Sequence record: PP526941.1
Origin: Escherichia phage vB_EcoM_ECO78
Direction: 5' to 3' (one strand)
Length of the DNA stretch: 64,000 nt
Of the stretch, positions 2,074-48,964 are shown piece after piece. The notes below the pieces were generated by a model. It was given only the letters and a program-made list of their open reading frames with translations. It did no database searches and was not told the origin of the DNA. The translations under genes were made by a program, and so were the position numbers. The first letter of the stretch is position 1. Each line of letters starts with the position of its first letter.

Positions 2074-3698
<1,625 letters not shown>

Positions 3699-3699
<1 letters not shown>

Positions 3700-3947
3700 T
3701 GGAAGGTTTAATTGAAGCTATTAAATCAAACGACCTCGTAGCCGCTCGTAAATTATTTGCTGAAGCCATGGCTGCAAGAACGATTGATTTAATTAAAGAA
3801 GAAAAAATCGCTATCGCTCGTAATTTCTTAATTGAAGGTGAAGAACCTGAAGACGAGGATGATGACGAAGACGAAGATAGTGATGATAAAGACGACAAAA
3901 AAGACAAAGACTCTGATGAAGATGACGAAGACGAGGATGATGAATAA
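3699..3947 (+). CDS. 67: prohead core protein gp67 with poly-acidic C-terminal tail
   Basis: 82 aa; start overlaps gene 20 stop (TAATG); C-terminal 35 residues almost entirely D/E/K; T4 gene order 20-67-68-21. Confidence 0.8.
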
Positions 3948-4372
3948 TGCTTCTGATCCCTGAAACTCATGAATTAGTTCTCGAGAATGTCGAAGCACTT
4001 ATTCCTGAAGCACGGGGTCGCTTTGACAAATTGTCTTCTGCTTTAAATAAAGACGATATAAATACAATTGTCGAGAATATGCTTGATGATGAAACTGATT
4101 TAGCGGTTGCATTAGCTTCTATTAATGAAAATATGCCGTTAAATGAATTCATCGTTAAACATGTTTCCGCCCGTGGTGAAATTACTCGCACTAAAGACCG
4201 CAAAACGCGTGAACGTAATGCATTTCAAACCACTGGGCTGTCTAAAGCAAAACGTAGACAAATTGCTCGTAAAGCTACCAAAACGAAGATTGCCAATCCA
4301 GCAGGTCAATCTCGTGCTCAGCGTAAGCGTAAAAAAGCTCTTAAACGCCGTAAAGCATTAGGATTAAGCTAA
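3947..4372 (+). CDS. 68: prohead core protein gp68
   Basis: 141 aa; overlapping start/stop with gp67; basic C-terminus; synteny. Confidence 0.8.
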
Positions 4373-5010
4373 TGAATGAACCCCAATTACTAATTGAAAC
4401 TTGGGGTCAACCTGGCGAAATTATTGATGGCGTACCAATGCTTGAATCTCATGATGGAAAAGACTTAGGTTTAAAACCGGGTTTATACATCGAAGGAATA
4501 TTCATGCAAGCGGAAGTCGTCAATAGAAATAAACGTCTTTATCCAAAACGTATATTAGAAAAAGCGGTAAAAGACTATATTAATGAGCAAGTTTTAACTA
4601 AACAAGCTCTCGGAGAATTAAATCATCCTCCACGCGCTAATGTTGACCCAATGCAAGCCGCTATCATTATAGAAGATATGTGGTGGAAAGGAAATGACGT
4701 ATACGGACGAGCTCGTGTTATTGAAGGTGACCATGGTCCTGGAGATAAATTAGCAGCTAATATTCGTGCCGGATGGATTCCAGGAGTTTCTTCTCGTGGA
4801 TTAGGTTCATTGACTGACACAAATAAAGGTTATCGTATCGTAAACGAAGGATTCAAATTAACTGTAGGTGTTGATGCAGTATGGGGTCCAAGTGCTCCAG
4901 ATGCATGGGTAACTCCTAAGGAAATTACCGAATCACAGACGGCGGAAGCCGATACAAGTGCCGATGACGCCTATATGGCTCTCGCAGAGGCCATGAAAAA
5001 AGCGTTATAA
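4372..5010 (+). CDS. 21: prohead core protease gp21
   Basis: 212 aa, the T4 gp21 length; overlapping TAATG junction with gene 68; synteny upstream of 22-23. Confidence 0.88.
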   Translation: MNEPQLLIETWGQPGEIIDGVPMLESHDGKDLGLKPGLYIEGIFMQAEVVNRNKRLYPKRILEKAVKDYINEQVLTKQALGELNHPPRANVDPMQAAIIIEDMWWKGNDVYGRARVIEGDHGPGDKLAANIRAGWIPGVSSRGLGSLTDTNKGYRIVNEGFKLTVGVDAVWGPSAPDAWVTPKEITESQTAEADTSADDAYMALAEAMKKAL

Positions 5011-5013
5011 ATA
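5006..5013 (+). promoter_or_regulatory. T4-type late promoter (TATAAATA) for gene 22
   Basis: Exact TATAAATA overlapping the gene 21 stop codon, 28 nt upstream of the gene 22 ATG. Confidence 0.55.
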
Positions 5014-5040
5014 TTATTATCTAAACAACAGGACTACAAA

Positions 5041-5850
5041 ATGCTTAAAGAACAACTGATTGCCGAAGCGCAGAAAATTGATGCTTCCGTTGCTCTTGAT
5101 AGTATTTTCGAATCAGTTAATATTTCTCCGGAAGCAAAAGAAACTTTCGGCACTGTATTCGAAGCTACCGTCAAGCAGCACGCCGTTAAATTAGCTGAAT
5201 CTCATATCGCTAAAATTGCTGAAAAAGCAGAAGAAGAAGTAGAAAAAAATAAAGAAGAAGCCGAAGAAAAAGCTGAGAAGAAAATCGCTGAGCAAGCTTC
5301 TAAATTCATTGACCATCTTGCGAAAGAATGGCTCGCTGAAAATAAATTAGCAGTTGATAAAGGTATCAAAGCCGAACTGTTTGAATCCATGCTTGGTGGA
5401 TTAAAAGAGCTCTTTGTTGAACACAACGTTGTTGTTCCAGAAGAATCAGTTGATGTTGTAGCTGAAATGGAAGAAGAGCTGCAAGAACATAAAGAAGAAT
5501 CAGCTCGTCTGTTCGAAGAACTCAATATGCGCGACGCATATATCAATTATGTGCAGCGTGAAGTGGCATTGAGCGAAAGTACTAAAGATCTGACTGAGTC
5601 TCAAAAAGAAAAAGTCTCTGCTCTGGTCGAAGGTATGGATTATTCAGATGCATTCTCAAGTAAATTGAGTGCAATCGTAGAAATGGTGAAGAAATCTAAT
5701 AAAGATGAAAGCACTATTACTGAGAGTATAAATACTCCTGATACTGAAGCAGCCGGACTGAATTTCGTCACTGAAGCTGTAGAAGATAAAGCTGCACAGG
5801 GTGCAGAAGATATTGTAAGTGTATATGCGAAAGTCGCATCTCGTTTCTAA
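5041..5850 (+). CDS. 22: prohead scaffolding core protein gp22
   Basis: 269 aa; Glu/Lys/Ala-rich predicted coiled-coil protein; synteny directly upstream of gene 23. Confidence 0.88.
   Translation: MLKEQLIAEAQKIDASVALDSIFESVNISPEAKETFGTVFEATVKQHAVKLAESHIAKIAEKAEEEVEKNKEEAEEKAEKKIAEQASKFIDHLAKEWLAENKLAVDKGIKAELFESMLGGLKELFVEHNVVVPEESVDVVAEMEEELQEHKEESARLFEELNMRDAYINYVQREVALSESTKDLTESQKEKVSALVEGMDYSDAFSSKLSAIVEMVKKSNKDESTITESINTPDTEAAGLNFVTEAVEDKAAQGAEDIVSVYAKVASRF
5727..5734 (+). promoter_or_regulatory. TATAAATA late-promoter motif inside the 3' part of gene 22 (candidate gene 23 promoter)
   Basis: Exact TATAAATA 135 nt upstream of the gene 23 ATG; no other match nearer. Confidence 0.35.
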
Positions 5851-5868: not shown

Positions 5869-7434
5869 ATGACTATCAAAACTAAAGCTGAACTTTTGAA
5901 CAAATGGAAGCCATTACTGGAAGGTGAAGGTTTACCGGAAATTGCTAATAGCAAACAAGCGATTATCGCTAAAATCTTTGAAAACCAGGAAAAAGATTTC
6001 CAGACAGCTCCGGAATATAAAGACGAAAAAATTGCTCAGGCATTCGGTTCTTTCTTAACAGAAGCTGAAATCGGTGGTGACCATGGTTACAATGCTACTA
6101 ACATCGCTGCAGGTCAGACTTCTGGCGCAGTAACCCAGATTGGCCCAGCTGTTATGGGTATGGTACGTCGTGCTATTCCTAACCTGATTGCTTTCGATAT
6201 TTGCGGTGTTCAGCCGATGAACAGCCCGACTGGCCAGGTATTCGCACTGCGTGCAGTATATGGTAAAGACCCAATCGCTTCCGATGCTAAAGAAGCATTC
6301 CACCCAATGTATGGTCCAGATGCAATGTTCTCTGGCCAGGGTGCTGCTAAGAAATTCCCAGCTCTGGCTGCTAGCACACAAACCGTTGTAGGTGATATCT
6401 ATACTCACTTCTTCCAGGAAACTGGTACTGTGTATCTGCAAGCTTCCGCTGTAGTAACAATCGATGCTGGTGCGACTGATGCTGCTAAATTAGATGCTGA
6501 AATTAAGAAACAAATGGAAGCTGGTGCACTGGTAGAAATCGCTGAAGGTATGGCTACTTCTATCGCTGAACTTCAGGAAGGTTTCAACGGTTCTACCGAT
6601 AACCCATGGAATGAAATGGGCTTCCGTATCGATAAACAAGTTATCGAAGCTAAATCTCGTCAGCTGAAAGCTGCTTACTCTATTGAATTAGCACAAGACC
6701 TCCGCGCTGTTCACGGTATGGATGCTGATGCTGAACTGTCTGGTATTCTGGCTACAGAAATTATGCTGGAAATCAACCGCGAAGTTGTTGATTGGATTAA
6801 CTACTCAGCTCAGGTTGGTAAATCTGGTATGACCCTGACTCCAGGTTCTAAAGCTGGTGTATTTGACTTCCAGGATCCGATTGATATTCGTGGTGCTCGC
6901 TGGGCGGGTGAATCCTTTAAAGCTCTGTTGTTCCAGATTGACAAAGAAGCAGTTGAAATTGCTCGTCAGACTGGTCGCGGCGAAGGTAACTTCATTATCG
7001 CTTCCCGTAACGTAGTTAACGTTCTGGCTTCAGTTGATACTGGCATTTCTTATGCTGCACAGGGTCTGGCTACCGGCTTCAACACTGATACTACCAAGTC
7101 AGTATTTGCTGGTGTTCTGGGTGGTAAATACCGTGTATATATCGATCAGTATGCTAAACAGGATTATTTCACTGTAGGTTATAAAGGTCCGAACGAAATG
7201 GATGCTGGTATTTACTACGCTCCATATGTAGCTCTGACTCCGCTGCGTGGTTCCGATCCGAAGAACTTCCAACCAGTAATGGGATTCAAAACTCGTTACG
7301 GTATCGGTATCAACCCATTTGCAGAATCCGCTGCTCAGGCTCCGGCTTCTCGCATCCAGAGCGGTATGCCTTCTATTCTGAATAGCCTTGGTAAAAACGC
7401 TTACTTCCGCCGTGTATATGTTAAAGGTATCTAA
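5869..7434 (+). CDS. 23: major capsid protein gp23
   Basis: 521 aa; N-terminus MTIKTKAELLNKWKPLLEGEG and overall sequence recognised as T4 gp23; synteny. Confidence 0.96.
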   Translation: MTIKTKAELLNKWKPLLEGEGLPEIANSKQAIIAKIFENQEKDFQTAPEYKDEKIAQAFGSFLTEAEIGGDHGYNATNIAAGQTSGAVTQIGPAVMGMVRRAIPNLIAFDICGVQPMNSPTGQVFALRAVYGKDPIASDAKEAFHPMYGPDAMFSGQGAAKKFPALAASTQTVVGDIYTHFFQETGTVYLQASAVVTIDAGATDAAKLDAEIKKQMEAGALVEIAEGMATSIAELQEGFNGSTDNPWNEMGFRIDKQVIEAKSRQLKAAYSIELAQDLRAVHGMDADAELSGILATEIMLEINREVVDWINYSAQVGKSGMTLTPGSKAGVFDFQDPIDIRGARWAGESFKALLFQIDKEAVEIARQTGRGEGNFIIASRNVVNVLASVDTGISYAAQGLATGFNTDTTKSVFAGVLGGKYRVYIDQYAKQDYFTVGYKGPNEMDAGIYYAPYVALTPLRGSDPKNFQPVMGFKTRYGIGINPFAESAAQAPASRIQSGMPSILNSLGKNAYFRRVYVKGI

Positions 7435-7449
7435 TCTTTGACGATTTAA

Positions 7450-7465
7450 GGGACCTTCGGGTCCC
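7450..7465 (+). terminator. rho-independent terminator after gene 23
   Basis: GGGACC-UUCG-GGUCCC hairpin followed by UUUAGUUGUUUUUAU. Confidence 0.65.
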
Positions 7466-7482
7466 TTTAGTTGTTTTTATGG

Positions 7483-7490
7483 TATAAATA
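7483..7490 (+). promoter_or_regulatory. T4-type late promoter (TATAAATA) for gene 24
   Basis: Exact TATAAATA 27 nt upstream of the gene 24 ATG. Confidence 0.6.
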
Positions 7491-7517
7491 AATCATATAA
7501 ACCAAAAGGAAAGCGCA

Positions 7518-8801
7518 ATGGCTAAAATCAACGAACTTCTGCGCGAATCAACCACAACGAATAGCAACTCAATCGGTCGCCCAAATCTCGTTGCTTTGAC
7601 TCGCGCTACCACTAAATTAATATATTCTGACATTGTAGCAACGCAAAGAACTAATCAACCTGTTGCTGCTTTTTATGGTATCAAATACCTTAACCCAGAT
7701 AACGAATTTACATTTAAAACTGGTGCTACTTACGCTGGCGAAGCTGGGTATGTAGACCGAGAACAAATCACAGAATTAACAGAAGAGTCTAAATTAACTC
7801 TCAATAAAGGCGATTTATTCAAATATAATAATATCGTTTATAAAGTATTAGAAGATACACCATTTGCTGATATTGAAGAAAGCGATTTAGAATTAGCTCT
7901 TCAGATTGCAATTGTTCTTTTAAAGGTTCGTCTATTTTCTGATGCTGCAGTAACAAGCAAATTTGAAAGCTCTGATAGTGAAATTGCGGATGCTAGATTC
8001 CAGATTAATAAATGGCAAACCGCGGTTAAATCTCGTAAACTTAAAACTGGCATCACAGTTGAATTAGCACAAGATTTAGAAGCAAATGGATTCGATGCTC
8101 CTAATTTCTTGGAAGATTTGCTTGCAACCGAAATGGCAGATGAAATCAATAAAGATATTCTACAGTCTTTGATTACAGTGTCAAAACGCTATAAAGTTAC
8201 AGGAATTACTGATACTGGATTCATTGATTTGAGTTATGCATCTGCACCCGAAGCGGGTCGTTCATTATACCGAATGGTATGTGAAATGGTTTCGCATATC
8301 CAAAAAGAATCAACTTATACAGCAACGTTCTGTGTTGCTTCAGCTCGTGCTGCTGCGATTCTTGCTGCATCAGGTTGGTTAAAACATAAACCAGAAGATG
8401 ATAAATATCTTTCACAAAATGCCTATGGGTTCTTAGCTAATGGTTTACCGCTTTATTGCGATACTAACAGCCCATTAGATTATGTAATCGTTGGCGTAGT
8501 AGAAAATATCGGTGAAAAAGAAATTGTTGGATCAATTTTCTATGCTCCGTATACAGAAGGTCTCGACTTAGATGACCCTGAACATGTAGGTGCATTTAAA
8601 GTTGTGGTTGATCCAGAAAGCTTACAACCGTCTATCGGTTTATTAGTTAGATATGCTTTATCAGCAAATCCTTACACTGTAGCAAAAGATGAAAAAGAAG
8701 CAAGAATAATTGACGGTGGAGACATGGATAAAATGGCAGGTCGTTCAGATTTGTCTGTTTTATTAGGTGTTAAATTACCAAAAATTATTATCGATGAATA
8801 A
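7518..8801 (+). CDS. 24: head vertex protein gp24
   Basis: 427 aa, the T4 gp24 length; synteny after gene 23. Confidence 0.93.
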   Translation: MAKINELLRESTTTNSNSIGRPNLVALTRATTKLIYSDIVATQRTNQPVAAFYGIKYLNPDNEFTFKTGATYAGEAGYVDREQITELTEESKLTLNKGDLFKYNNIVYKVLEDTPFADIEESDLELALQIAIVLLKVRLFSDAAVTSKFESSDSEIADARFQINKWQTAVKSRKLKTGITVELAQDLEANGFDAPNFLEDLLATEMADEINKDILQSLITVSKRYKVTGITDTGFIDLSYASAPEAGRSLYRMVCEMVSHIQKESTYTATFCVASARAAAILAASGWLKHKPEDDKYLSQNAYGFLANGLPLYCDTNSPLDYVIVGVVENIGEKEIVGSIFYAPYTEGLDLDDPEHVGAFKVVVDPESLQPSIGLLVRYALSANPYTVAKDEKEARIIDGGDMDKMAGRSDLSVLLGVKLPKIIIDE

Positions 8802-10414: not shown

Positions 10415-11833
10415 TTATGGATAGGTATAGATGATACCAGTTTCTAAAGCAGTTTTGTGAATGATGTATCCATTACGCGATTCTTGGACATCAACTTCTG
10501 GATAATCTTTCATCATCTTCTGGAGAGTGTAACGATGCAGATAGTATTTACTATCTGGGTCTTCAGTTTTCCAATCTTTACCTTCTTCAGTCATTTTTTG
10601 AATTTCATCCATAACCCACCAACCGCACCAGATATAAGCTGAAGTACGATGTGGAAGAGGATGAACATAAGGCAATTCACCTTCTGGTTCTGGAGCAACT
10701 TTATCAGTCACTTGAACTTGACCTTCTGCTGTGATAGTTTTGCTATCATAATCAGTGGCAGTAACAGTTGCAGTAACTTCAATAGTTTGACTTCCAATAG
10801 ATGATGTATCAACGGTGTATACATTAGTTGACCCTTCTACAGGAGAAGAATCTTTCTTCCATGAATAAGTAATTTGTGCTTCTTCTGGAGCATCCGTAAC
10901 ATTAGCAGTAAATGTAGCCGAAGCATCTTGCTGAACGTTAATAGAAGGAGGAGTCAATGTAACCCGTGGATTCATTGTTTTCTTATTAACTGTCAATGAT
11001 ACTTCATTCGAAGTAACTTCCTTTTCATTGTAATTTTCAGCAGTTACTTGGGCTACGCATTTAATTCTTTTTACTCCACTTGTAGTTGGAGTATAGTTAA
11101 ATGTAGAGTTAGTTTCTCCACCAACTTGTGAATCATCTACATACCACTGATACGTAGCAGACGCTCCAACTGGTTGAGAAGCTAAGGCAGCAGTAAATTG
11201 AACTGGGGTTCCAATCACTCCAGCAGCAGGACTATCAGGAGTTACTGCCAAGGTAGTTGTCTGCGTCTTTTTATTAACAGTCAGTGACACTTCATTAGAA
11301 GTAACGCTTAGTGTATCATAATCTGTCGCGGTTACTTGAGCCACACACTTAATTGTTTTAACTCCGCTTGTGGTAGGAGTGTAATTGAATGTAGCAGAAG
11401 TTGCTTCGCCAACAGGAGAACCGTCAACGTGCCATTGATACGTAGCAGATGCACCTGGTGGCTGCGAAGCTAAAGCGGCAGTAAATTCAATAGCTGTTCC
11501 GATTACTCCAGCGTCAGGGCTATTAGGAGTTACAGCTAAGGTGGTCGTTTGTGTCTTATTTTGAACTGTGATAGTTGTAGTAGCTTCTGCTGTTTCAGCA
11601 TCAGTATCTGGAACTGTATTTGTTGCAACTACTTTAATAGTCTTTTGCCCGGCAGGTCCTTTTAGTACATAACTAAAAGTTGCTTCAGCTCCATCTTGTG
11701 GAACATCATCCACAGTCCAAGCATATGTAATAGTTCCGCCTCCAGTTTCACCACTGGGTGTAGCAGTAAACTGCTTAGTTTCATCAATAACCCCTGTCGA
11801 TGTTTTAGGAGTTATATCAACTGTAAAAGCCAT
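10415..11833 (-). CDS. hoc: highly immunogenic outer capsid protein Hoc with four tandem Ig-like domains
   Basis: 472 aa; N-terminal Ig-like domains and C-terminal capsid-binding region (ELPYVHPLPHR...IWCGWWVMDEI) recognised as Hoc; contains an internal 96-aa tandem duplication. Confidence 0.9.
   Translation of the reverse strand: MAFTVDITPKTSTGVIDETKQFTATPSGETGGGTITYAWTVDDVPQDGAEATFSYVLKGPAGQKTIKVVATNTVPDTDAETAEATTTITVQNKTQTTTLAVTPNSPDAGVIGTAIEFTAALASQPPGASATYQWHVDGSPVGEATSATFNYTPTTSGVKTIKCVAQVTATDYDTLSVTSNEVSLTVNKKTQTTTLAVTPDSPAAGVIGTPVQFTAALASQPVGASATYQWYVDDSQVGGETNSTFNYTPTTSGVKRIKCVAQVTAENYNEKEVTSNEVSLTVNKKTMNPRVTLTPPSINVQQDASATFTANVTDAPEEAQITYSWKKDSSPVEGSTNVYTVDTSSIGSQTIEVTATVTATDYDSKTITAEGQVQVTDKVAPEPEGELPYVHPLPHRTSAYIWCGWWVMDEIQKMTEEGKDWKTEDPDSKYYLHRYTLQKMMKDYPEVDVQESRNGYIIHKTALETGIIYTYP
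10979..11554 (-). repeat. in-frame tandem duplication (2 x 288 bp) inside hoc encoding two near-identical Ig-like domains
   Basis: Residues 94-189 and 190-285 of the translated protein are about 80 percent identical; the underlying DNA blocks are visibly similar. Confidence 0.8.
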
Positions 11834-11842
11834 AAGTTATCC

Positions 11843-12523
11843 TTATTTTAATGTTACGAAAGAAGAGTTGCGTGTTTCACGAATTAAAACTGATCCATCA
11901 CGGTTAATGTAATAAATTAAGCTAAATAAAGTTTGATGTGCTGACGCATGTTCAAAACTAGTTGGGTGAGATTTCCAATCAGGAGTTTCAGCAATCCATT
12001 GATAAATCCACCAAGGAACAGTACAGAATCCTGGATTTTTTCCAATCAGCTGAAGATTCGGACTAAAGTTTTCCGGAAGAGTAAATACAGACGGCTTTTC
12101 AGATTCAATAATCTCAGCTACAGCCTGTTCAAATTTTTCTTCAACAAAGGGAGTATCTTCAATCAAAATATCAGTATTTTCAGGAATTTTATCCGTTTCT
12201 ACTACTTCAATTTTAATGTCAGATTTAACCGGAGAATCAATCAGAAGTGCTGCTTCTGGATTGACTTCTTCATCGTCATATTTTAATCCCTCTGCAGCAT
12301 CAGCAGCATCAATTAAGTCTTTAATAGATAACCCATCAGTCTCTGGCATAGGTTCACTAGCGAGCTTCTGGAGGGCTTCTTCAATATCAACAACGATATT
12401 ATCAAAAGATTTATTCTTTTTGACCTTTATACCAAACTGTTCAGCATATTCAGCTAATTTAGCTTTAGCTTCTTTATTATCATCAAGAGCCTTCAGCTCT
12501 GCAATATAATCTTTATCTATCAT
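11843..12523 (-). CDS. inh: probable inhibitor of prohead protease (Inh/hoc.1 position)
   Basis: 226 aa acidic protein located between hoc and uvsW as in T4; assignment by synteny and length. Confidence 0.6.
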   Translation of the reverse strand: MIDKDYIAELKALDDNKEAKAKLAEYAEQFGIKVKKNKSFDNIVVDIEEALQKLASEPMPETDGLSIKDLIDAADAAEGLKYDDEEVNPEAALLIDSPVKSDIKIEVVETDKIPENTDILIEDTPFVEEKFEQAVAEIIESEKPSVFTLPENFSPNLQLIGKNPGFCTVPWWIYQWIAETPDWKSHPTSFEHASAHQTLFSLIYYINRDGSVLIRETRNSSFVTLK

Positions 12524-12536
12524 AATATTTCCTCAG

Positions 12537-12544
12537 TATAAATA
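12537..12544 (+). promoter_or_regulatory. TATAAATA late-promoter motif upstream of the homing endonuclease gene
   Basis: Exact TATAAATA 29 nt upstream of the ATG at 12573. Confidence 0.4.
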
Positions 12545-12572
12545 TAGATATATTTATTACTCGGAAAATAGT

Positions 12573-13190
12573 ATGTACCACTTTGTATATGAAACAACAA
12601 ATCTAATAAATGGTAAAAAGTATATAGGAAAGCACTCTACTGATGACTTGAATGATGGTTACCTTGGTTCCGGTAAGGCAATTCAGCAGGCTATAAAGAA
12701 ATATGGTGAAAACAATTTCTCTAGAACAATACTAAAAGAGTTTAAAACTTCCGAAGAAGCGTACATGTATGAAGAAGAAATTATAACTCCTGAACTAATA
12801 AAAAGCAAAAATTATTATAATATGAAACCTGGTGGAATTGGTGGAATTGTTATGACTACAGATGTTATAGCAAAGATGAAAGAATCTTCCGCTAAAAGAT
12901 TTGAAAACTCACCGGGCACGGTATTAGGTAAAACTTGTTACACTAATGGAACTAAAAATATTTTTATTAAACCTGGAGAACTTGTTCCAGAAGGATTTGT
13001 AAAAGGGATGGTTCATCCTAATAGAAAGTCCAGAAAAGGATGTAAAGTCAAACCGACTACCACAGGAACTTTTTGGGTCAATAATGGCGCAATAAATAAA
13101 TTAATACAACCAGACGGTATTATTCCCGACGGATTTATTAAAGGTCGTCTCATGAAAAGAGATTCTAAAGGCAAATTTAGTAAGGCATAA
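12573..13190 (+). CDS. segE: GIY-YIG homing endonuclease, Seg family (position corresponds to T4 segE)
   Basis: 205 aa; N-terminal GIY-YIG module (YHFVYETTNLINGKKYIGKH ... YYNMKPGG); free-standing gene inserted between inh and uvsW; stop overlaps the uvsW start. Confidence 0.65.
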   Translation: MYHFVYETTNLINGKKYIGKHSTDDLNDGYLGSGKAIQQAIKKYGENNFSRTILKEFKTSEEAYMYEEEIITPELIKSKNYYNMKPGGIGGIVMTTDVIAKMKESSAKRFENSPGTVLGKTCYTNGTKNIFIKPGELVPEGFVKGMVHPNRKSRKGCKVKPTTTGTFWVNNGAINKLIQPDGIIPDGFIKGRLMKRDSKGKFSKA

Positions 13191-13192
13191 TT

Positions 13193-14701
13193 ATGGATAT
13201 TAAAGTACATTTTCACGACTTCAGTCATGTACGCATCGATTGTGAAGAGAGCACGTTCCACGAATTAAGAGATTTCTTTTCGTTTGAGGCCGATGGATAT
13301 AGATTTAATCCTCGCTTCAGATATGGCAACTGGGATGGACGAATCCGTCTTTTAGATTATAATCGACTTCTTCCATTCGGCTTAGTCGGGCAAATTAAAA
13401 AGTTCTGCGATAACTTTGGCTATAAAGCCTGGATTGACCCACAAATTAACGAAAAAGAAGAATTATCAAGAAAAGATTTTGATGAATGGCTTTCTAAATT
13501 AGAAATCTATTCAGGAAATAAAAGAATTGAACCGCACTGGTATCAAAAAGATGCAGTGTTCGAAGGATTAGTTAATCGTCGTAGAATTCTTAATCTTCCA
13601 ACATCCGCTGGTAAATCTTTAATTCAAGCTTTGCTTGCGCGATATTATTTGGAAAATTATGAAGGTAAAATTCTTATCATTGTTCCAACAACTGCTCTGA
13701 CAACTCAGATGGCTGATGACTTTGTTGACTATCGTTTATTCAGTCATGCAATGATAAAGAAAATCGGCGGTGGAGCATCAAAAGATGATAAATATAAAAA
13801 TGATGCACCAGTCGTTGTTGGTACATGGCAAACTGTAGTAAAACAACCGAAAGAATGGTTCTCACAGTTTGGAATGATGATGAATGATGAATGCCATCTT
13901 GCTACAGGAAAAAGTATTTCATCTATCATATCAGGTTTAAATAACTGTATGTTTAAATTTGGTTTGTCTGGTTCATTACGTGATGGCAAAGCTAATATCA
14001 TGCAGTATGTTGGAATGTTTGGTGAAATATTTAAGCCAGTAACGACTTCTAAATTAATGGAAGATGGACAAGTAACTGAGCTAAAAATTAATAGTATTTT
14101 TCTTCGCTATCCCGATGAGTTCACTACTAAATTAAAGGGAAAAACTTACCAAGAAGAAATAAAAATTATCACTGGACTCAGTAAAAGAAATAAATGGATC
14201 GCTAAATTAGCTATTAAGCTTGCACAAAAAGATGAAAACGCTTTTGTCATGTTTAAACACGTATCACACGGTAAAGCTATTTTCGATTTAATTAAAAATG
14301 AATACGATAAAGTTTATTACGTATCAGGGGAAGTTGATACCGAAACCCGCAATATAATGAAAACCTTAGCTGAAAACGGTAAAGGAATAATTATAGTAGC
14401 TAGTTATGGTGTATTTTCTACCGGTATTTCAGTTAAAAATCTGCATCACGTTGTTTTAGCACACGGTGTTAAATCTAAAATTATTGTATTGCAAACAATC
14501 GGTCGTGTATTACGTAAGCATGGTTCCAAAACAATCGCAACAGTCTGGGACCTCATCGATGATTGTGGTGTTAAGCCAAAATCTGCTAATACGAAAAAGA
14601 AATACGTTCATTTGAACTATCTTTTAAAACACGGCATTGATCGTATTCAGCGCTACGCAGATGAAAAATTTAATTACGTAATGAAAACAGTTAATTTATA
14701 A
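13193..14701 (+). CDS. uvsW: UvsW recombination/repair helicase
   Basis: 502 aa; Walker A (PTSAGKS) and DEAH-like box (NDECH); synteny. Confidence 0.9.
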   Translation: MDIKVHFHDFSHVRIDCEESTFHELRDFFSFEADGYRFNPRFRYGNWDGRIRLLDYNRLLPFGLVGQIKKFCDNFGYKAWIDPQINEKEELSRKDFDEWLSKLEIYSGNKRIEPHWYQKDAVFEGLVNRRRILNLPTSAGKSLIQALLARYYLENYEGKILIIVPTTALTTQMADDFVDYRLFSHAMIKKIGGGASKDDKYKNDAPVVVGTWQTVVKQPKEWFSQFGMMMNDECHLATGKSISSIISGLNNCMFKFGLSGSLRDGKANIMQYVGMFGEIFKPVTTSKLMEDGQVTELKINSIFLRYPDEFTTKLKGKTYQEEIKIITGLSKRNKWIAKLAIKLAQKDENAFVMFKHVSHGKAIFDLIKNEYDKVYYVSGEVDTETRNIMKTLAENGKGIIIVASYGVFSTGISVKNLHHVVLAHGVKSKIIVLQTIGRVLRKHGSKTIATVWDLIDDCGVKPKSANTKKKYVHLNYLLKHGIDRIQRYADEKFNYVMKTVNL

Positions 14702-14714: not shown

Positions 14715-14726
14715 TTGGAGAAAAAG

Positions 14727-14957
14727 ATGTTACTAGAATTTAAACAATTTCTTTATGAAGCTTCTATTGATGAATTTATGGGTAAAATTGCCTCTTGTCA
14801 AACAATAGAAGGTCTAGAAGAACTTGAAGCTTATTATAAGAAAAGAGTTAAAGAAACTGAATTAAAAGATACTGATGACATCTCCGTGAGAGATGCTTTG
14901 GCAGGAAAAAGAGCTGAATTAGAAGATTCAGACGATGAAGTAGAAGAAAGCTTTTAA
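14727..14957 (+). CDS. uvsW.1: UvsW.1-like small acidic protein
   Basis: ORF track start is a TTG; ATG at 14727 with GGAG SD gives 76 aa; synteny downstream of uvsW. Confidence 0.6.
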   Translation: MLLEFKQFLYEASIDEFMGKIASCQTIEGLEELEAYYKKRVKETELKDTDDISVRDALAGKRAELEDSDDEVEESF

Positions 14958-40072: not shown

Positions 40073-41251
40073 TTAAAAGTATTTTTTAAAACTCATCATA
40101 ACTTTATCATCAACATCATTATCAATCTGTGCAACAAGGTAAGATGACAGTTCTACTTCTTGTGGCGCGGATTGAACATTATCAGAATTAAGATATTCAC
40201 GAATCCAAGGATATGGATGTTTAACCGGAGCATCGGTAATTGGGCATGGAAGACCACACTGTTTCATACGAGATACAGTTAAGTAATCAATAAAGCTCCA
40301 CATGCTATTTGTATTTAATCCAGGAACATCGCCATCTTTAAATAAATGAACTGCCCAATCTTTTTCTTGACGGTTAACTTCCATGAAAATATCAACTGCT
40401 TCTTGTTCACACTCTTGGGCAATTTTAACCCATTCATCGCCATCAGTGCCAAGTTGAAGTTGACGAATAATATATTGGGTGCCCTTAAGGTGTAGTTGTT
40501 CATCGCGAGCAATGAACTTCATAATCTTGGCATTACCTTCCATGATTTCCATATTCTTGTGGAAGTTAAAGGTGCATGCGAAAGATACATAAAAACGAAT
40601 AGCTTCTAAGGCATTAATAACGTGCAAACAGAGGTAAAGAGATTTCATTAGCTCACGCTTCCAATATGTCTCATGCTCAATAGCATCTTCAATAATGTCT
40701 TCGTCTGCATTAATTTCTTTTTGGTATTCGATATCAGCTTTAGCGTTTTCCCAATAACGAGTTTTAATCAGAACATCATCATAATAACGTCCAATGGATT
40801 CAGCACGTTTCATAATAGCTTCATCTAATACAATTTCATCAAATACCTTCGATGGATCAGTATAAAGATTTCGCATGATATGAGTATATGAACGACTGTG
40901 AATAGTTTCACTAAAAGTCCATGTAGCAACCCATGTATCAAGACTTGGGTCTGAAATTAATGACATAAGTACGGCAGACGGCGCACGACCCTGAATGCTA
41001 TCCAAAAGTGATTGATACTTCAGGTTGTTAGTAAAAATATTTTGCTGGTACTGAGGAAGCTTATTAAACTGTGCAGCATCCATCATCAAGTTTACTTCTT
41101 CAGGACGCCAGAAAAATGACAATTGCTTTTCGGTTAAATCTTCAAAAACTTTATGGCGTTGAATATCATAACGCGCAATACCAAGACCTGAACCGAAGAA
41201 CATAGGTTCTTTTAAAACATCAACTGGATTTGTATTAAAAACTGTGCTCAT
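40073..41251 (-). CDS. nrdB: ribonucleotide reductase small subunit NrdB, uninterrupted
   Basis: 392 aa contiguous ORF; di-iron/tyrosyl-radical RNR beta family; synteny downstream of nrdA; no intron-sized interruption. Confidence 0.92.
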   Translation of the reverse strand: MSTVFNTNPVDVLKEPMFFGSGLGIARYDIQRHKVFEDLTEKQLSFFWRPEEVNLMMDAAQFNKLPQYQQNIFTNNLKYQSLLDSIQGRAPSAVLMSLISDPSLDTWVATWTFSETIHSRSYTHIMRNLYTDPSKVFDEIVLDEAIMKRAESIGRYYDDVLIKTRYWENAKADIEYQKEINADEDIIEDAIEHETYWKRELMKSLYLCLHVINALEAIRFYVSFACTFNFHKNMEIMEGNAKIMKFIARDEQLHLKGTQYIIRQLQLGTDGDEWVKIAQECEQEAVDIFMEVNRQEKDWAVHLFKDGDVPGLNTNSMWSFIDYLTVSRMKQCGLPCPITDAPVKHPYPWIREYLNSDNVQSAPQEVELSSYLVAQIDNDVDDKVMMSFKKYF

Positions 41252-41302
41252 AAATTTTCCGCTTAGTTAATAGATAGTGACTCGTCCATGAGTCAAATTA
41301 TA

Positions 41303-43567
41303 TCATAATTTACAGGATGAACAATCTTCAGCTTTTGGAGTTTCTATTTCATAATCATCAGTACCAGAACCGTCACGGGTATTATGATAATAGAAATTTT
41401 TTCCGCCAAAATACCAAAAATACAAAAGGTCATCAATCATTATTGACATTGGAACCTTTCCTTTTGGAAAAATCTGCGGGTCATAATATGTATTTGCTGA
41501 AGCTGATTGACATACCCATTTCAGCATAATAGCTACCTGTGTAAGATAAGGTTTATTGCCTTTCTTAGCTAATTTCCACGTATAATCATAGAGGTCTATG
41601 TTATGTTCAATATTGGGCACGACTTGATTAAAGGAGCCCTCTTTTGATTCTTTAACAGAGACTGGTCCACGTGGAGGCTCGATACCGTTTGTACTGTTAG
41701 AAACTTGGGAAGATGACTCACATGGCATAAGTGCTGATAATGTGCTATTACGGATGCCAAAGAGCTTAAGGTCTTCCCGCAGCGACGACCAGTCACAAAC
41801 GTATTTTGGAGCTGCGATTTGGTCAATCTTTTTATTGTACCAGTCGATAGGTAATTCGCCTCGAGACCAACGAGTGTCTGAATAATATTCGCAAGGTCCT
41901 TTTTCTTTGGCGAGCTTAATGGATGCTTTAATGAGTCCATACTGTAATCTCTCAAATAGTTCATGTGTTAAATCGTTAGCATCTTCATAAGAAGCAAAGT
42001 TACTTGCCAGCCAAGCTGCATAGTTAGTAACACCTACACCGAGGTTACGACGCTTTTTAGCTTTTTCTGCTTCAGGAACTGGATATCCTTGGTAATCCAA
42101 AAGATTATCAAGAGCACGAACTTGAACTTCTGCCAATTCATTAATTTTATCTTGGTCTTGCCAATCGAAGTTATCCAACACAAACGCAGATAACGTACAC
42201 AATCCAATTTCGGCATCAGGGCTATTCACATCATTTGTTGGAATAGCAATTTCACAGCACAAGTTACTCTGACGAATAGGTGCCTTTTCACGAATAAACG
42301 GAGTGTAGTTATTCGTATTATCAATGAACTGTACATAAATCCTTGCTGTTCCTGAACGTTCAGTCATGAGCAATTCAAACAGTTCACGGGCTTTAATACG
42401 CTTTTTACGAATATTAGGGTCTTTTTCTGCTGCTTCGTATAATTCGCGGAAACGGTCTTGGTCTTTAAAATAAGAATAATAAAGCTCGCCACCCATTTCA
42501 TGCGGACTGAACAAAGTAATGTAATCGTTCTTTCCAAAACGTTCCATCATCAAATCATTCAGCTGAACACCATAATCCATATGACGAATGCGGTTTTCTT
42601 CTACGCCTTTGTTATTTTTCAAAACGAGAAGATTTTCAACTTCCAAATGCCAAATAGGATAATAAGCAGTAGCAGCGCCGCCACGAATTCCACCCTGTGA
42701 ACATGATTTAACTGCGGTCTGAAAATGTTTCCAAAAAGGAATAACACCAGTATGGCGTACTTCACCCATGCCAATCTTAGAACCTTCGGCACGAATCATA
42801 CCAACGTTAATACCAATTCCAGCACGTTTGGAGATATATTCAACAATCGAAGCGGAAGCCTTATTGATAGACTTCAATGAATCACCTGCCTCAATAACAA
42901 CGCATGAACTAAACTGCCGAGTTGGAGTACGACAACCAGCCATAATAGGAGTTGGCAATGAAATCTGTCGAGTAGATACCGCTTCATAAAAACGGATAAC
43001 ATGTTTTAATCTATCAACAGGTTCATCTTGATGCAATGCCATTCCAATAGCCATAAATGCAAACTGCGGAGTTTCATAAATTTGACCAGTGGTTTTATCT
43101 TTAACTAAATATTTTTCTTTTAATTGCATCGCCCCGGAATAAGTAAATTCCATATCCCGCTCGTGCTTAATTTTTGATTCTAAAAATGTAATTTCTTCTG
43201 CTGAATATTTTGACAATAATTCAGGGTCATATTTACCTTCATTTACACAATAAGAAATATGGTCAATAAATGAACGTGGTTCATACTGCCCGTAAACATG
43301 TTTACGAAGAGCAAACATTAAACAGCGTGCAGCTACATATTGATAATCAGGTTCTTCAACCGAAATAGAATTCGCAGCGGCCTTAATGACAATAGTCTGA
43401 ATATCATCAGTTGTCATTCCATCACGGAGATAAGATTTAATGTTTTCATATAATTCATAAGGATCTACTGATGTTCCCTCAGCTGCCCAAGATAAAACTT
43501 TAATAATTTTTTGTGGGTCAAAGCTCTGAGAAACACCACTACTTTTGATAACATTAATTAATTGCAT
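41303..43567 (-). CDS. nrdA: ribonucleotide reductase large subunit NrdA
   Basis: 754 aa; N-terminal ATP-cone; class I RNR alpha. Confidence 0.95.
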   Translation of the reverse strand: MQLINVIKSSGVSQSFDPQKIIKVLSWAAEGTSVDPYELYENIKSYLRDGMTTDDIQTIVIKAAANSISVEEPDYQYVAARCLMFALRKHVYGQYEPRSFIDHISYCVNEGKYDPELLSKYSAEEITFLESKIKHERDMEFTYSGAMQLKEKYLVKDKTTGQIYETPQFAFMAIGMALHQDEPVDRLKHVIRFYEAVSTRQISLPTPIMAGCRTPTRQFSSCVVIEAGDSLKSINKASASIVEYISKRAGIGINVGMIRAEGSKIGMGEVRHTGVIPFWKHFQTAVKSCSQGGIRGGAATAYYPIWHLEVENLLVLKNNKGVEENRIRHMDYGVQLNDLMMERFGKNDYITLFSPHEMGGELYYSYFKDQDRFRELYEAAEKDPNIRKKRIKARELFELLMTERSGTARIYVQFIDNTNNYTPFIREKAPIRQSNLCCEIAIPTNDVNSPDAEIGLCTLSAFVLDNFDWQDQDKINELAEVQVRALDNLLDYQGYPVPEAEKAKKRRNLGVGVTNYAAWLASNFASYEDANDLTHELFERLQYGLIKASIKLAKEKGPCEYYSDTRWSRGELPIDWYNKKIDQIAAPKYVCDWSSLREDLKLFGIRNSTLSALMPCESSSQVSNSTNGIEPPRGPVSVKESKEGSFNQVVPNIEHNIDLYDYTWKLAKKGNKPYLTQVAIMLKWVCQSASANTYYDPQIFPKGKVPMSIMIDDLLYFWYFGGKNFYYHNTRDGSGTDDYEIETPKAEDCSSCKL

Positions 43568-43884: not shown

Positions 43885-44101
43885 ATTGTTTTTCCGTTAA
43901 AACAGTAATATCGTAGTAACAGTCAGAAGAAGTTTTAACTGTAGAAATTTTATTATCAAAATACTCACGAGTCATTTTATGAGTATAATACTTTTTACCA
44001 TAAATGATAATAGGTTGTTCTGGTCCTGGAACTTCTAACTCACTTGGGTTAGGAAGTGTAAAAAGAACAACGCCAGAAATATCTTTAAATCGTAAAATCA
44101 T
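43838..44101 (-). CDS. hypothetical protein (position of T4 nrdA.2)
   Basis: 87-aa ORF, ATGA-coupled to td. Confidence 0.45.
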
Positions 44102-44958
44102 ATTGCCATTTTCCCTTTAATTGCTGGATGCGATTCATAATTTTCAAGGATAAAATCTTTCGGTTTCATGTATTCAGTTAACCAGTAAAGCTGTGTTTCG
44201 GTGTCACAATTTCCAAACTCTATAGGCCAATCAATTTTAAGTTCACATAGTTCTTTAGGCTCACGACGTAAAATTTCTTTACATTGCTCAGTATGATTCA
44301 TATAGATGTGAGTATTACCACCAGAAAATATCAAATCTCCTGGGATAAGATTACACATCTTAGCCACAATATGCGTCAAGGCAGCGTACGAGGCAATATT
44401 GAATGGCAAGCCCAAGAAAACATCTACACTTCTTTGGTACCATTGTAAATCAAGATAACCATTACGCACATTAAACTGATAGAACATATGACAGGGCGGT
44501 AATGCCATTTGATTGATTTCAGCTGGATTCCATGCTGAAACGATTTGACGTCGATCAGTTGGTAATTTTTTAATACGATCAATAGTTTCAACTAATTGAT
44601 CCACACCACCGAAATCACGCCATTGTTTACCGTATATAGGACCAAGTTCACCACTATGATATCCTAGGTCTTTAGCCTGGTTTTCATAGTTATCGTCCCA
44701 AATAGTTTTACCTTGAATAAGACTACCATGAGTGCGAAGACGTAAATCATTAACATTGGTAGAACCGGAAATAAACCATAGAAGCTCAGCAATGCATGCA
44801 TTCCAGGCGAGCTTCTTAGTCGTTACTGCAGGAAAACCTTTAGTTAAATCCCAGCGTAATTTAGTACCGAACAAAGCAATTGTTCCTGTGCCCGTTCGGT
44901 CATCGGTTTCATAGCCGTTTTCAAGAATGTCTTTAATTAAATCTTGGTATTGTTTCAT
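44098..44958 (-). CDS. td: thymidylate synthase, uninterrupted
   Basis: 286 aa contiguous ORF; classical ThyA active-site region ([15 protein letters not shown]). Confidence 0.95.
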
Positions 44959-47302: not shown

Positions 47303-48211
47303 TTAAAGGTCATTCAAAAGGTCATCCAGGTCCGTGTCATCAGCACTAGATGAACTGCCAGAGCTTGAGCTCATAAAATCATCTTCAGTTTTTGTATTGA
47401 AGTCATCAACATTGAATGCATCCAAATCATCAGCAACTTTATCAGCTTTCTTAGCAGCAGTTGCTGCGGCCCCGCCCATCACAGCAGTTCCCATGACTTG
47501 ACCGAATTTAGTGCTCAGTTCTTCAAACGATTTGAATTTATCTTTAGAAGTCATTTCAGAAAGGTCAACCATTTGTTCGAACAGTTCTTTCTGGAAAGAT
47601 TCATCGTCAATGTTTGGAATCGCAGATTGATTCAGAAATTTAGATTCATCGTAGTTACTAAATCCAGAAACTTGTTTAACTTTCAGTACAAAGTTAGCAC
47701 CTTCCCACGGACAAGTTACATCAACCGGAGTTTCACCCATTTCAACATCAACTGCAATCATTGCATTGATTTTATCCCAAATTTTCTTACCGAAACGGTA
47801 TTTAAATACTTTACCTTCATTTTCTGGAGCAGCTGGGTCTTTTACAACAAGAATGTTAGCCCAGTAAGAAGTTTTACGTTTAACAAGACTGTACTCTTTA
47901 TTGTCAGTGTTGTACAGATCATTTTTACTGATGTATTGACATACTGGGCAAGAATCGTAATCACCGTGGGTAGATGAACAGTTTTCAATATACCATTTAC
48001 CATTTTTCTTGAAACCGTGATTTACAAGAATTGCGAATGGTGCTTGTTCATCATTTTTAGACGGAAGAAAACGAATTACTGCTTGACCGTTACCCGCATT
48101 GTCGAGTTTCAGTTTCCACTCGCCTTTATCTTCAGAAGAAAAACCACCTTTATTTCCAGCCAGTTTAGCCATTTGTGCAGCGAGTTCAGCAGTAGATTTA
48201 CGTTTAAACAT
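47303..48211 (-). CDS. 32: single-stranded DNA-binding protein gp32
   Basis: 302 aa; sequence recognised as gp32 (zinc-binding region [15 protein letters not shown], acidic Ser/Asp-rich C-terminus). Confidence 0.96.
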
Positions 48212-48271
48212 TTTTATTTCCTTTTTAATTTAATTAACAGTTGGTGCTATGACGATGTATGACCTCATAGC
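48212..48271 (-). promoter_or_regulatory. gene 32 translational operator: A/U-rich unstructured leader plus 5' pseudoknot (gp32 autoregulation site)
   Basis: mRNA sense reads ...GCUAUGAGGUCAUACAUCGUCAUAGCACCAACUGUUAAUUAAAUUAAAAAGGAAAUAAAAAUG, matching the T4 operator as I recall it. Confidence 0.6.
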
Positions 48272-48294
48272 TGGTCAGTGAGATAATTATAATC

Positions 48295-48302
48295 TATTTA
48301 TA
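48295..48302 (-). promoter_or_regulatory. T4-type late promoter (TATAAATA on minus strand) upstream of gene 32
   Basis: Plus-strand TATTTATA about 85 nt upstream of the gene 32 ATG. Confidence 0.4.
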
Positions 48303-48310
48303 ATAAGCAA

Positions 48311-48964
48311 TTAATACTTACAAGATTTCACAGTTTCAATGAAAACATTTTTAGCTTTCTGTGAATCAATATTTAAAATTTTTCTATAAGCCTTTAACTT
48401 TATAGAATAATTATTCCAGACTAAATTATCAGTCTGTTCATCATGTTTATCAATTATATTTAAAAATGAATCAAGCAAGATAAACGTCTCAAACGAAATT
48501 ATGTTCGATTGCAGAAGTTTAAAAATATAACTTGACTGAACTTTTGGATTATATTCAAAGATTTCTTTAAAAGCAGAAACTTCAACTTTTTTACTAAAAT
48601 AATAAATGTTGCGAATATCTTCTTCAAACTTAAATTTAATTTGCTTTAAGCGTCCGATATATTCACGATAAAACACAAGTGCATCAGCGTCAGAGATGTC
48701 ACCAATCCAAGCATCTTGGTTAGCAACCAAATTGCTTATAAAGATTAAAGCAAGTTCCTTTAATTTATATTTTTCTGATAACTTCTGGAAAAAATACTTA
48801 TCCCTTCGCTTTTGATAAGCGGCATCAGACACCCGCATGCACCAATTATACTTAATAACATCATACTTTCCATTCATATGTTGTTTTATCATTAAGTATA
48901 ATTTATAAACTGATTTACCATCAATGTATCTTTCACCACCAGCAGGCATGCGGAGTTTAATCAT
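48311..48964 (-). CDS. 59: helicase loader gp59
   Basis: 217 aa, the T4 gp59 length; synteny between 33 and 32. Confidence 0.82.
   Translation of the reverse strand: MIKLRMPAGGERYIDGKSVYKLYLMIKQHMNGKYDVIKYNWCMRVSDAAYQKRRDKYFFQKLSEKYKLKELALIFISNLVANQDAWIGDISDADALVFYREYIGRLKQIKFKFEEDIRNIYYFSKKVEVSAFKEIFEYNPKVQSSYIFKLLQSNIISFETFILLDSFLNIIDKHDEQTDNLVWNNYSIKLKAYRKILNIDSQKAKNVFIETVKSCKY

Follow-up and report, generated by a model that had tools for sequence, protein, structure and literature searches.

The segE gene of Escherichia phage vB_EcoM_ECO78, a T4-type free-standing homing endonuclease gene linked to a recoded uvsW 5' end

The DNA analyzed here, called the window throughout, is a 64,000-nucleotide stretch of Escherichia phage vB_EcoM_ECO78 (PP526941.1). 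Part of it is occupied by hoc (10415-11833) and inh (11843-12523), both on the minus strand, followed on the plus strand by an open reading frame (ORF) of 205 aa with an ATG start at 12573 and a TAA stop at 13188-13190 (12573-13190), and then by the helicase gene uvsW (13193-14701, plus strand; Pfam UvsW_N, ResIII, DEAD and Helicase_C), the 3' neighbor of the ORF and the host gene of its target site. A first-pass annotation, made from the letters alone, had described an ORF of this length at this place, running against the strand of hoc and inh, and it is present as described. The same annotation had the stop codon overlapping the start of uvsW. This is not the case, as the junction reads GCA TAA TT ATG GAT and a 2-nt spacer separates the TAA from the uvsW ATG at 13193. 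Both inh and uvsW are intact, and the ORF fills the spacer between them as a free-standing, intergenic gene outside any intron or intein. The arrangement of an intron-encoded endonuclease of the I-TevI type is not found, since no host gene is interrupted and uvsW begins 2 nt past the stop of the ORF.

The product of this ORF is identical to SegE of phage T4 (NP_049795; segE, formerly hoc.2) at 205 of 205 residues (BLASTP, E 3e-156). At the DNA level the two genes are 99.8% identical, the sole change being synonymous (position 12941 is C in the window and T in T4, in the codon for Tyr123). The order inh, segE, uvsW, with segE on the same strand as uvsW, matches the T4 annotation and Table 1 of PMC2988022, so the suggestion that this is the site where T4 carries segE is borne out. 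T4 also shares with the window the 49-nt spacer upstream of segE with its TATAAATA motif, the 2-nt spacer between segE and uvsW, and a recoded 5' end of uvsW that we call T4-type and describe below. The annotation "segE: homing endonuclease" is found between inh and uvsW in T4 and in many later-annotated phages. The window genome is nevertheless not T4: its Hoc has 472 aa compared with 376 aa in T4, its flanks are ~97-98% identical to those of T4, and over the first 24 kb of the window the closest matches are PhiZZ30 and the RB3 group, at ~97%. We conclude, with a probability of about 95%, that the ORF is segE, known from T4 as a free-standing gene for a GIY-YIG homing endonuclease and residing here in a different Tequatrovirus. 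The gene and its homing behavior were described in the 1990s and the window copy encodes the identical protein. The finding is therefore correct but ordinary, as the ORF is the well-studied T4 segE.

The catalytic domain of SegE covers roughly residues 1-90 (12573-12842, plus strand) and was delimited from Pfam PF19835, an alignment of profiles with I-TevI and an AlphaFold (AF2) model. The family-specific model PF19835 (SegE_GIY-YIG) matches the segE product with 36.5 bits against a cutoff of 25, and PHROG 314 ("homing endonuclease") matches it with an E-value of 2.6e-43. The generic GIY-YIG model PF01541 reaches 21.6 bits, 1 bit below its cutoff of 22.6. Across 53 diverse SegE homologues the residues Y6, K15, Y17, G19, D28, Y30, G32-S33-G34, K43, G45, N83 and G87-G88 are invariant, and E67 and H21 are each kept in at least 90%. 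The two motif tyrosines lie in the segments FVY6 and KY17-I-G19, which are likewise invariant in the 53 homologues and align to Y6 and Y17-V-G19 of I-TevI. A profile built from this family retrieves the I-TevI catalytic domain (1LN0 and 1MK0) with E-values of 0.02-0.03 and 25-27% identity; in that alignment Y6, Y17, G19, E67 and N83 of SegE map to Y6, Y17, G19, E75 and N90 of I-TevI, and the canonical GIY-YIG arginine of I-TevI, R27, falls within a 9-residue I-TevI insertion without a SegE counterpart.

The AF2 model of SegE has a mean pLDDT of 84.9, with values of 93-97 over residues 1-80. In a Foldseek search its top three PDB matches are all the I-TevI catalytic domain (1MK0, 1LN0), with a probability of 1.00 and target-normalized TM scores of 0.61-0.64, every other match having an E-value above 1. 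The relation to I-TevI was reached through the family profile and the structure search because a single-sequence search of PDB sequences with SegE missed I-TevI and returned spurious weak matches, the best being a tail tube protein (E 0.008). The N-terminal GIY-YIG module proposed from the translation is thus confirmed by a Pfam match above cutoff and by the I-TevI fold of the model, and the core residues Y6, Y17, E67 and N83 are all conserved. I-TevI, the endonuclease of the td intron, has the same catalytic fold, the same Tyr-Tyr-Glu-Asn core and the same architecture of a nuclease joined to a C-terminal part that binds DNA, presumably also in SegE. Unlike SegE, whose gene is free-standing, it is encoded in a group I intron, and the similarity is weak (profile E ~0.02), with R27 unalignable.

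The C-terminal part contains two repeats of ~32 aa (12915-13148, plus strand), recognized by self-comparison and by family conservation. Residues 115-146 and 161-192 are identical at 12 of 32 positions (E 1e-7) and follow the motif G-x-x-(Y/W)-x-x-N-G-x-x-N-x-x-I-x-P-x-x-x-(V/I)-P-(E/D)-G-F-(V/I)-K-G. G165, W168, G172, P185, G191 and R192 are conserved across the family, the AF2 model places beta-hairpins at residues 121-132 and 167-178, and many SegE homologues carry NUMOD3 (PF07460) in their middle region. Neither Foldseek nor the PDB sequence search returned a match or solved relative for the repeats. The region presumably binds DNA, as the corresponding part does in GIY-YIG homing enzymes of the same two-domain build. 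Among the free-standing endonucleases that T-even phages carry, T4 SegA, SegB, SegC and SegD share the SegE-type N-terminal GIY-YIG domain and the intergenic lifestyle; in tblastn comparisons they are 34-49% identical to SegE, mainly over the N-terminal half. Their C-terminal DNA-binding parts differ from that of SegE, as do their sites and targets (uvsX, the tRNA cluster, 5.1/5.3 and 23/24; PMC2988022 Table 1). No SegE paralogue was found in the 64-kb window.

An exact match to the late-promoter consensus, TATAAATA, lies on the plus strand at 12537-12544, where the first-pass annotation had placed it; the distance to the segE ATG is 28 nt and not the 29 nt given there. The motif is enriched in the window, occurring 19 times where 8.45 occurrences would be expected, a count attained in 0 of 100 shuffles. 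The motif had also been listed with the mobile element, to which it does not belong: it lies in the conserved flank outside the insert and is identical in the segE-less phages T2, RB32, RB51, CM8, RB18, RB27 and UFV11, where it precedes uvsW, indicating that segE slipped in between the motif and uvsW. The same motif is found in Mosigvirus and Gelderlandvirus relatives, preceding either uvsW or a SegE-like gene. Some T4 endonuclease genes have their start sequestered by an RNA hairpin; such a structure was considered for segE and dropped, as 12545-12640 folds no more stably than shuffled sequences do (z = -0.05). Expression of UvsW from a late promoter has been reported (PMC3016281), and according to Edgell's review the promoter of segE lies in the non-coding DNA upstream of it, endonuclease-specific promoters of this kind being middle or late (PMC2988022). 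We found neither a sigma-70-like nor a MotA-like promoter upstream of segE, no terminator-like site between segE and uvsW, and inside segE no exact late consensus, only matches with one mismatch such as AATAAATA at 13091-13098. The ribosome-binding region of uvsW lies inside the 3' end of segE.

The inh side of the same spacer also carries a promoter-like sequence. On the minus strand at 12551-12558, and 27 nt upstream of the start codon of inh, the sequence AATAAATA is one mismatch away from the late consensus and stands back-to-back with the plus-strand TATAAATA. Judging from these motifs, the 49-nt spacer between inh and segE may hold divergent late promoters. The old T4 entry X14869 annotates putative minus-strand promoters in this spacer.

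The distribution of segE is sporadic. It is present in 158 of the 674 phage records matching the inh/uvsW flanks, always in a single copy and at 97.7-99.8% identity, and by even sampling of the match ranking we estimate that ~340 further records have both flanks and no segE, so that about one third of the Tequatrovirus-like records with both flanks carry the gene. Most relatives thus lack it, and its absence from T2, stated in the first-pass annotation, is confirmed: in two T2 records (LC348380 and PV648363) ~620 bp are cleanly missing at the site. The same clean empty site, with a 50-nt spacer between inh and uvsW and identical junctions, is found in T2, RB32, RB51, CM8, RB18 and RB27; in empty-site phages uvsW starts at the position where segE starts in carriers. 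The presence of segE is independent of the type of the neighboring hoc gene, as long and short Hoc are each seen with and without it. By ORF length, Hoc has 472-474 aa in the window and in the carriers PhiZZ30 and AR1 and also in RB27, which lacks segE, and 376 aa in T4, a carrier, and RB32, a non-carrier. The 472-aa Hoc of the window contains extra Ig-like repeat units in its translation compared with the 376-aa T4 protein; the long form is shared by PhiZZ30, RB27 and AR1. One of the matching records, the 32-kb MG010123.1, is labeled "Staphylococcus phage SAJK-IND"; its segE is 97.7% identical to that of the window and its T4-type uvsW tract 99.3%, and it is almost certainly a mislabeled or contaminated T4-like sequence.

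A global alignment of six carriers and six non-carriers was used to set the boundaries of the unit that comes and goes. On the left, segE+ and segE- alleles are identical through 12560 (...TATTTATTAC) and split from 12561, where the carriers have the 12-nt segE leader TCGGAAAATAGT (12561-12572, plus strand). On the right, the difference continues beyond the ORF into the first 136 nt of uvsW, giving a presence/absence unit of 768 bp (12561-13328). Over codons 1-46 of uvsW (13193-13328, plus strand), the T4-type sequence of carriers differs from the T2-type sequence at 34 of 139 aligned nucleotides (24%), the last fixed difference being at 13328; from 13329 on, carriers and non-carriers differ by ~2%, which equals the level within each class. 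In these codons the two types are separated by 20 synonymous and 5 conservative changes and one codon indel. The protein has thus been kept while the DNA was recoded. The tract is tied to segE almost without exception, since the T4-type sequence (at least 95% identity) occurs in 157 records, compared with the 158 that have segE. A corresponding co-conversion signal in the left flank was considered and dropped, as the low divergence at 12243-12560 is common to the segE-less phages.

Such linkage is what one would expect if a free-standing homing endonuclease has its target in the gene next to it. Judging from the alignments, the recoded tract is the signature of a target region that is cleavage-protected or co-converted: the carrier allele would either be protected by the sequence change or have brought its own flank along. 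In segE-less alleles, the target of SegE probably lies in the segment corresponding to 13193-13328. The 1997 abstract of Kadyrov et al. reportedly puts the site at the uvsW 5' end in RB30, with T4 DNA being cut less efficiently. Passages of PMC2330249 and PMC2988022, both citing Kadyrov 1997, describe T4 SegE as a site-specific endonuclease and a proven free-standing GIY-YIG homing endonuclease. According to the same passages and Table 1 of PMC2988022, segE of T4 homes into RB30 with an efficiency of nearly 100% and its flanks are co-converted, a process requiring intact segE and DNA homology. In these passages the target is placed in "uvsW" by PMC2988022 and between the genes hoc.1 (inh) and uvsW by PMC2330249, the latter also terming the segE region non-essential.

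The events in ECO78 can be pictured from this literature. The gene would probably be transcribed late from TATAAATA at 12537-12544, in the same direction as uvsW, yielding a protein that would join the N-terminal GIY-YIG nuclease to a C-terminal region that contains the repeats and binds DNA. When a segE-less relative infects the same cell, SegE would, as described in the literature for T4, cut the genome of that relative at the uvsW 5' end or close to it. The break would be resected and repaired by the phage recombination machinery with the segE-carrying genome as template, and the repair would copy segE and its flank into the recipient, resulting in intronless homing, co-conversion and local marker exclusion. 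The uvsW 5' end of the carrier (13193-13328), with about one quarter of its bases recoded, is presumably shielded from efficient self-cleavage and would move with segE as one 768-bp cassette (12561-13328). Cleavage and homing are as reported for the identical T4 protein; our own observations are the identity with T4 SegE, the fold and core residues of a GIY-YIG enzyme, the sporadic occurrence among relatives, the bounds of the cassette, the recoded tract and the recombinant alleles described below. Nothing in the data contradicts the explanation by T4-segE homing, and the description of the ORF as a free-standing GIY-YIG homing endonuclease gene stands on its identity with T4 SegE, the family match, the fold and the intergenic site.

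A copy of such a gene could also be a decaying, inactive remnant that persists between inh and uvsW, as decay is to be expected of homing endonuclease genes after fixation. The substitutions among segE copies are indeed not strongly biased toward synonymous changes (9 synonymous and 5 non-synonymous codons in Shigella phage SH-2, 4 and 3 in PhiZZ30), and the generic Pfam GIY-YIG model just misses its cutoff on SegE. However, the protein is that of T4, for which enzymatic activity and homing at ~100% are reported, the ORF is intact in 6 of 6 copies compared (the window and five relatives), none of these has a substitution at Y6, Y17, E67 or N83, and the gene is unfixed, being limited to about a third of the relevant records, so targets are still available. 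We therefore hold a remnant to be very improbable. Still less probable is that segE is kept mainly for its usefulness, as a first cistron organizing late uvsW expression or as a weapon excluding competitor markers: it does sit at the uvsW start of empty-site phages, having taken the position behind the conserved TATAAATA, with the uvsW ribosome-binding region in its 3' end and with neither an exact late promoter inside it nor a terminator before uvsW, but about two thirds of close relatives thrive without it, the region is called non-essential in the passages of PMC2330249, and such a role is compatible with homing and so is no true alternative to it.

The homing of segE remains by far the preferred reading. 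Some segE-less phages have a chimeric uvsW start, T2-type in the proximal part next to the empty site and T4-type in the distal part. The breakpoint lies at about nt 81-90 of uvsW in UFV05, UFV06, UFV09, UFV10, UFV11 and BCH953P4, and at about nt 101-107 in SHFML-11; three records of the BCP series match the same probe as SHFML-11 at the same 96.4% identity. The two breakpoints show recombination inside the tract, and the chimeric alleles would be an indirect trace of biased inheritance with co-conversion in mixed infections. The 24% divergence between T4-type and T2-type tracts is about that seen in uvsW between genera (25-31%), and the T4-type tract is not close to the allele of Gelderlandvirus (STP4-a) or Mosigvirus (BEU50). 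It is conceivable, if rather unlikely, that the mobile unit is a 768-bp cassette that came from outside Tequatrovirus with a foreign uvsW start, and that the segE-less chimeras may be cleavage-resistant, "immune empty" alleles. If this were true, the chimeras would be natural examples of the stage of resistance in the life cycle of a homing endonuclease, and with a SegE site somewhere in uvsW nt ~90-138 the chimeric alleles should be uncuttable.

Orthologues at the same site occur in two further genera. Gelderlandvirus STP4-a has a SegE orthologue of 64% amino acid identity at the inh-uvsW site, in the same orientation and behind TATAAATA. In Mosigvirus BEU50 the orthologue is 48% identical, again with the same site, orientation and TATAAATA, and is longer, with an extra middle segment. 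Within Mosigvirus, the first 140 nt of uvsW are 12% divergent between the carrier BEU50 and the empty-site phage mar005P1, compared with 3% further on. In the STP4-a record, uvsW is annotated as two helicase pieces (3118-5612) with an 876-nt ORF between them that overlaps both; this ORF could be an insertion in uvsW or an artefact of annotation or sequencing.

The far end of uvsW is also variable in places. The window has separate ORFs for uvsW (502 aa) and the 80-aa uvsW.1 (14715-14957), an arrangement shared with RB3 and T2; the T4 reference records annotate a single 1764-nt uvsW with a note on sequence discrepancies. Shigella phage SH-2 has an extra 693-nt ORF between uvsW and uvsW.1 (4663-5355 in that phage), and over the final ~140 nt of uvsW it departs from the window (~14543-14701) at 38 of 141 positions, compared with 2-10% in other phages. 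The arrangement has the look of another free-standing endonuclease cassette, again with a recoded flank but situated at the opposite end of uvsW.

Apart from segE, the sites of T4 homing endonucleases and introns that fall in the 64-kb window, located according to PMC2988022, are empty (regions 5869-8801, 40073-43567, 44098-44958 and 47303-48964). The gap between genes 23 and 24 is 83 nt and leaves the window without segD; genes 32 and 59 are 99 nt apart, which means that segG is missing from it as well. The td gene is an uninterrupted ORF of 286 aa, so the window has no td intron and no I-TevI. Likewise, nrdB is an uninterrupted ORF of 392 aa lying 51 nt from nrdA, which leaves no nrdB intron and no mobE in the window.

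As a discovery this locus carries little weight, its practical value being for annotation and population genetics. The window phage carries segE and lacks the other T4 endonuclease genes and introns of this 64-kb region. The survey presents a clean natural homing cassette, with a linked recoded target, recombinant segE-less alleles and orthologues at the same site in three genera, and this material could serve for mapping the recognition site of SegE and for studying the origin of resistance to a homing endonuclease.
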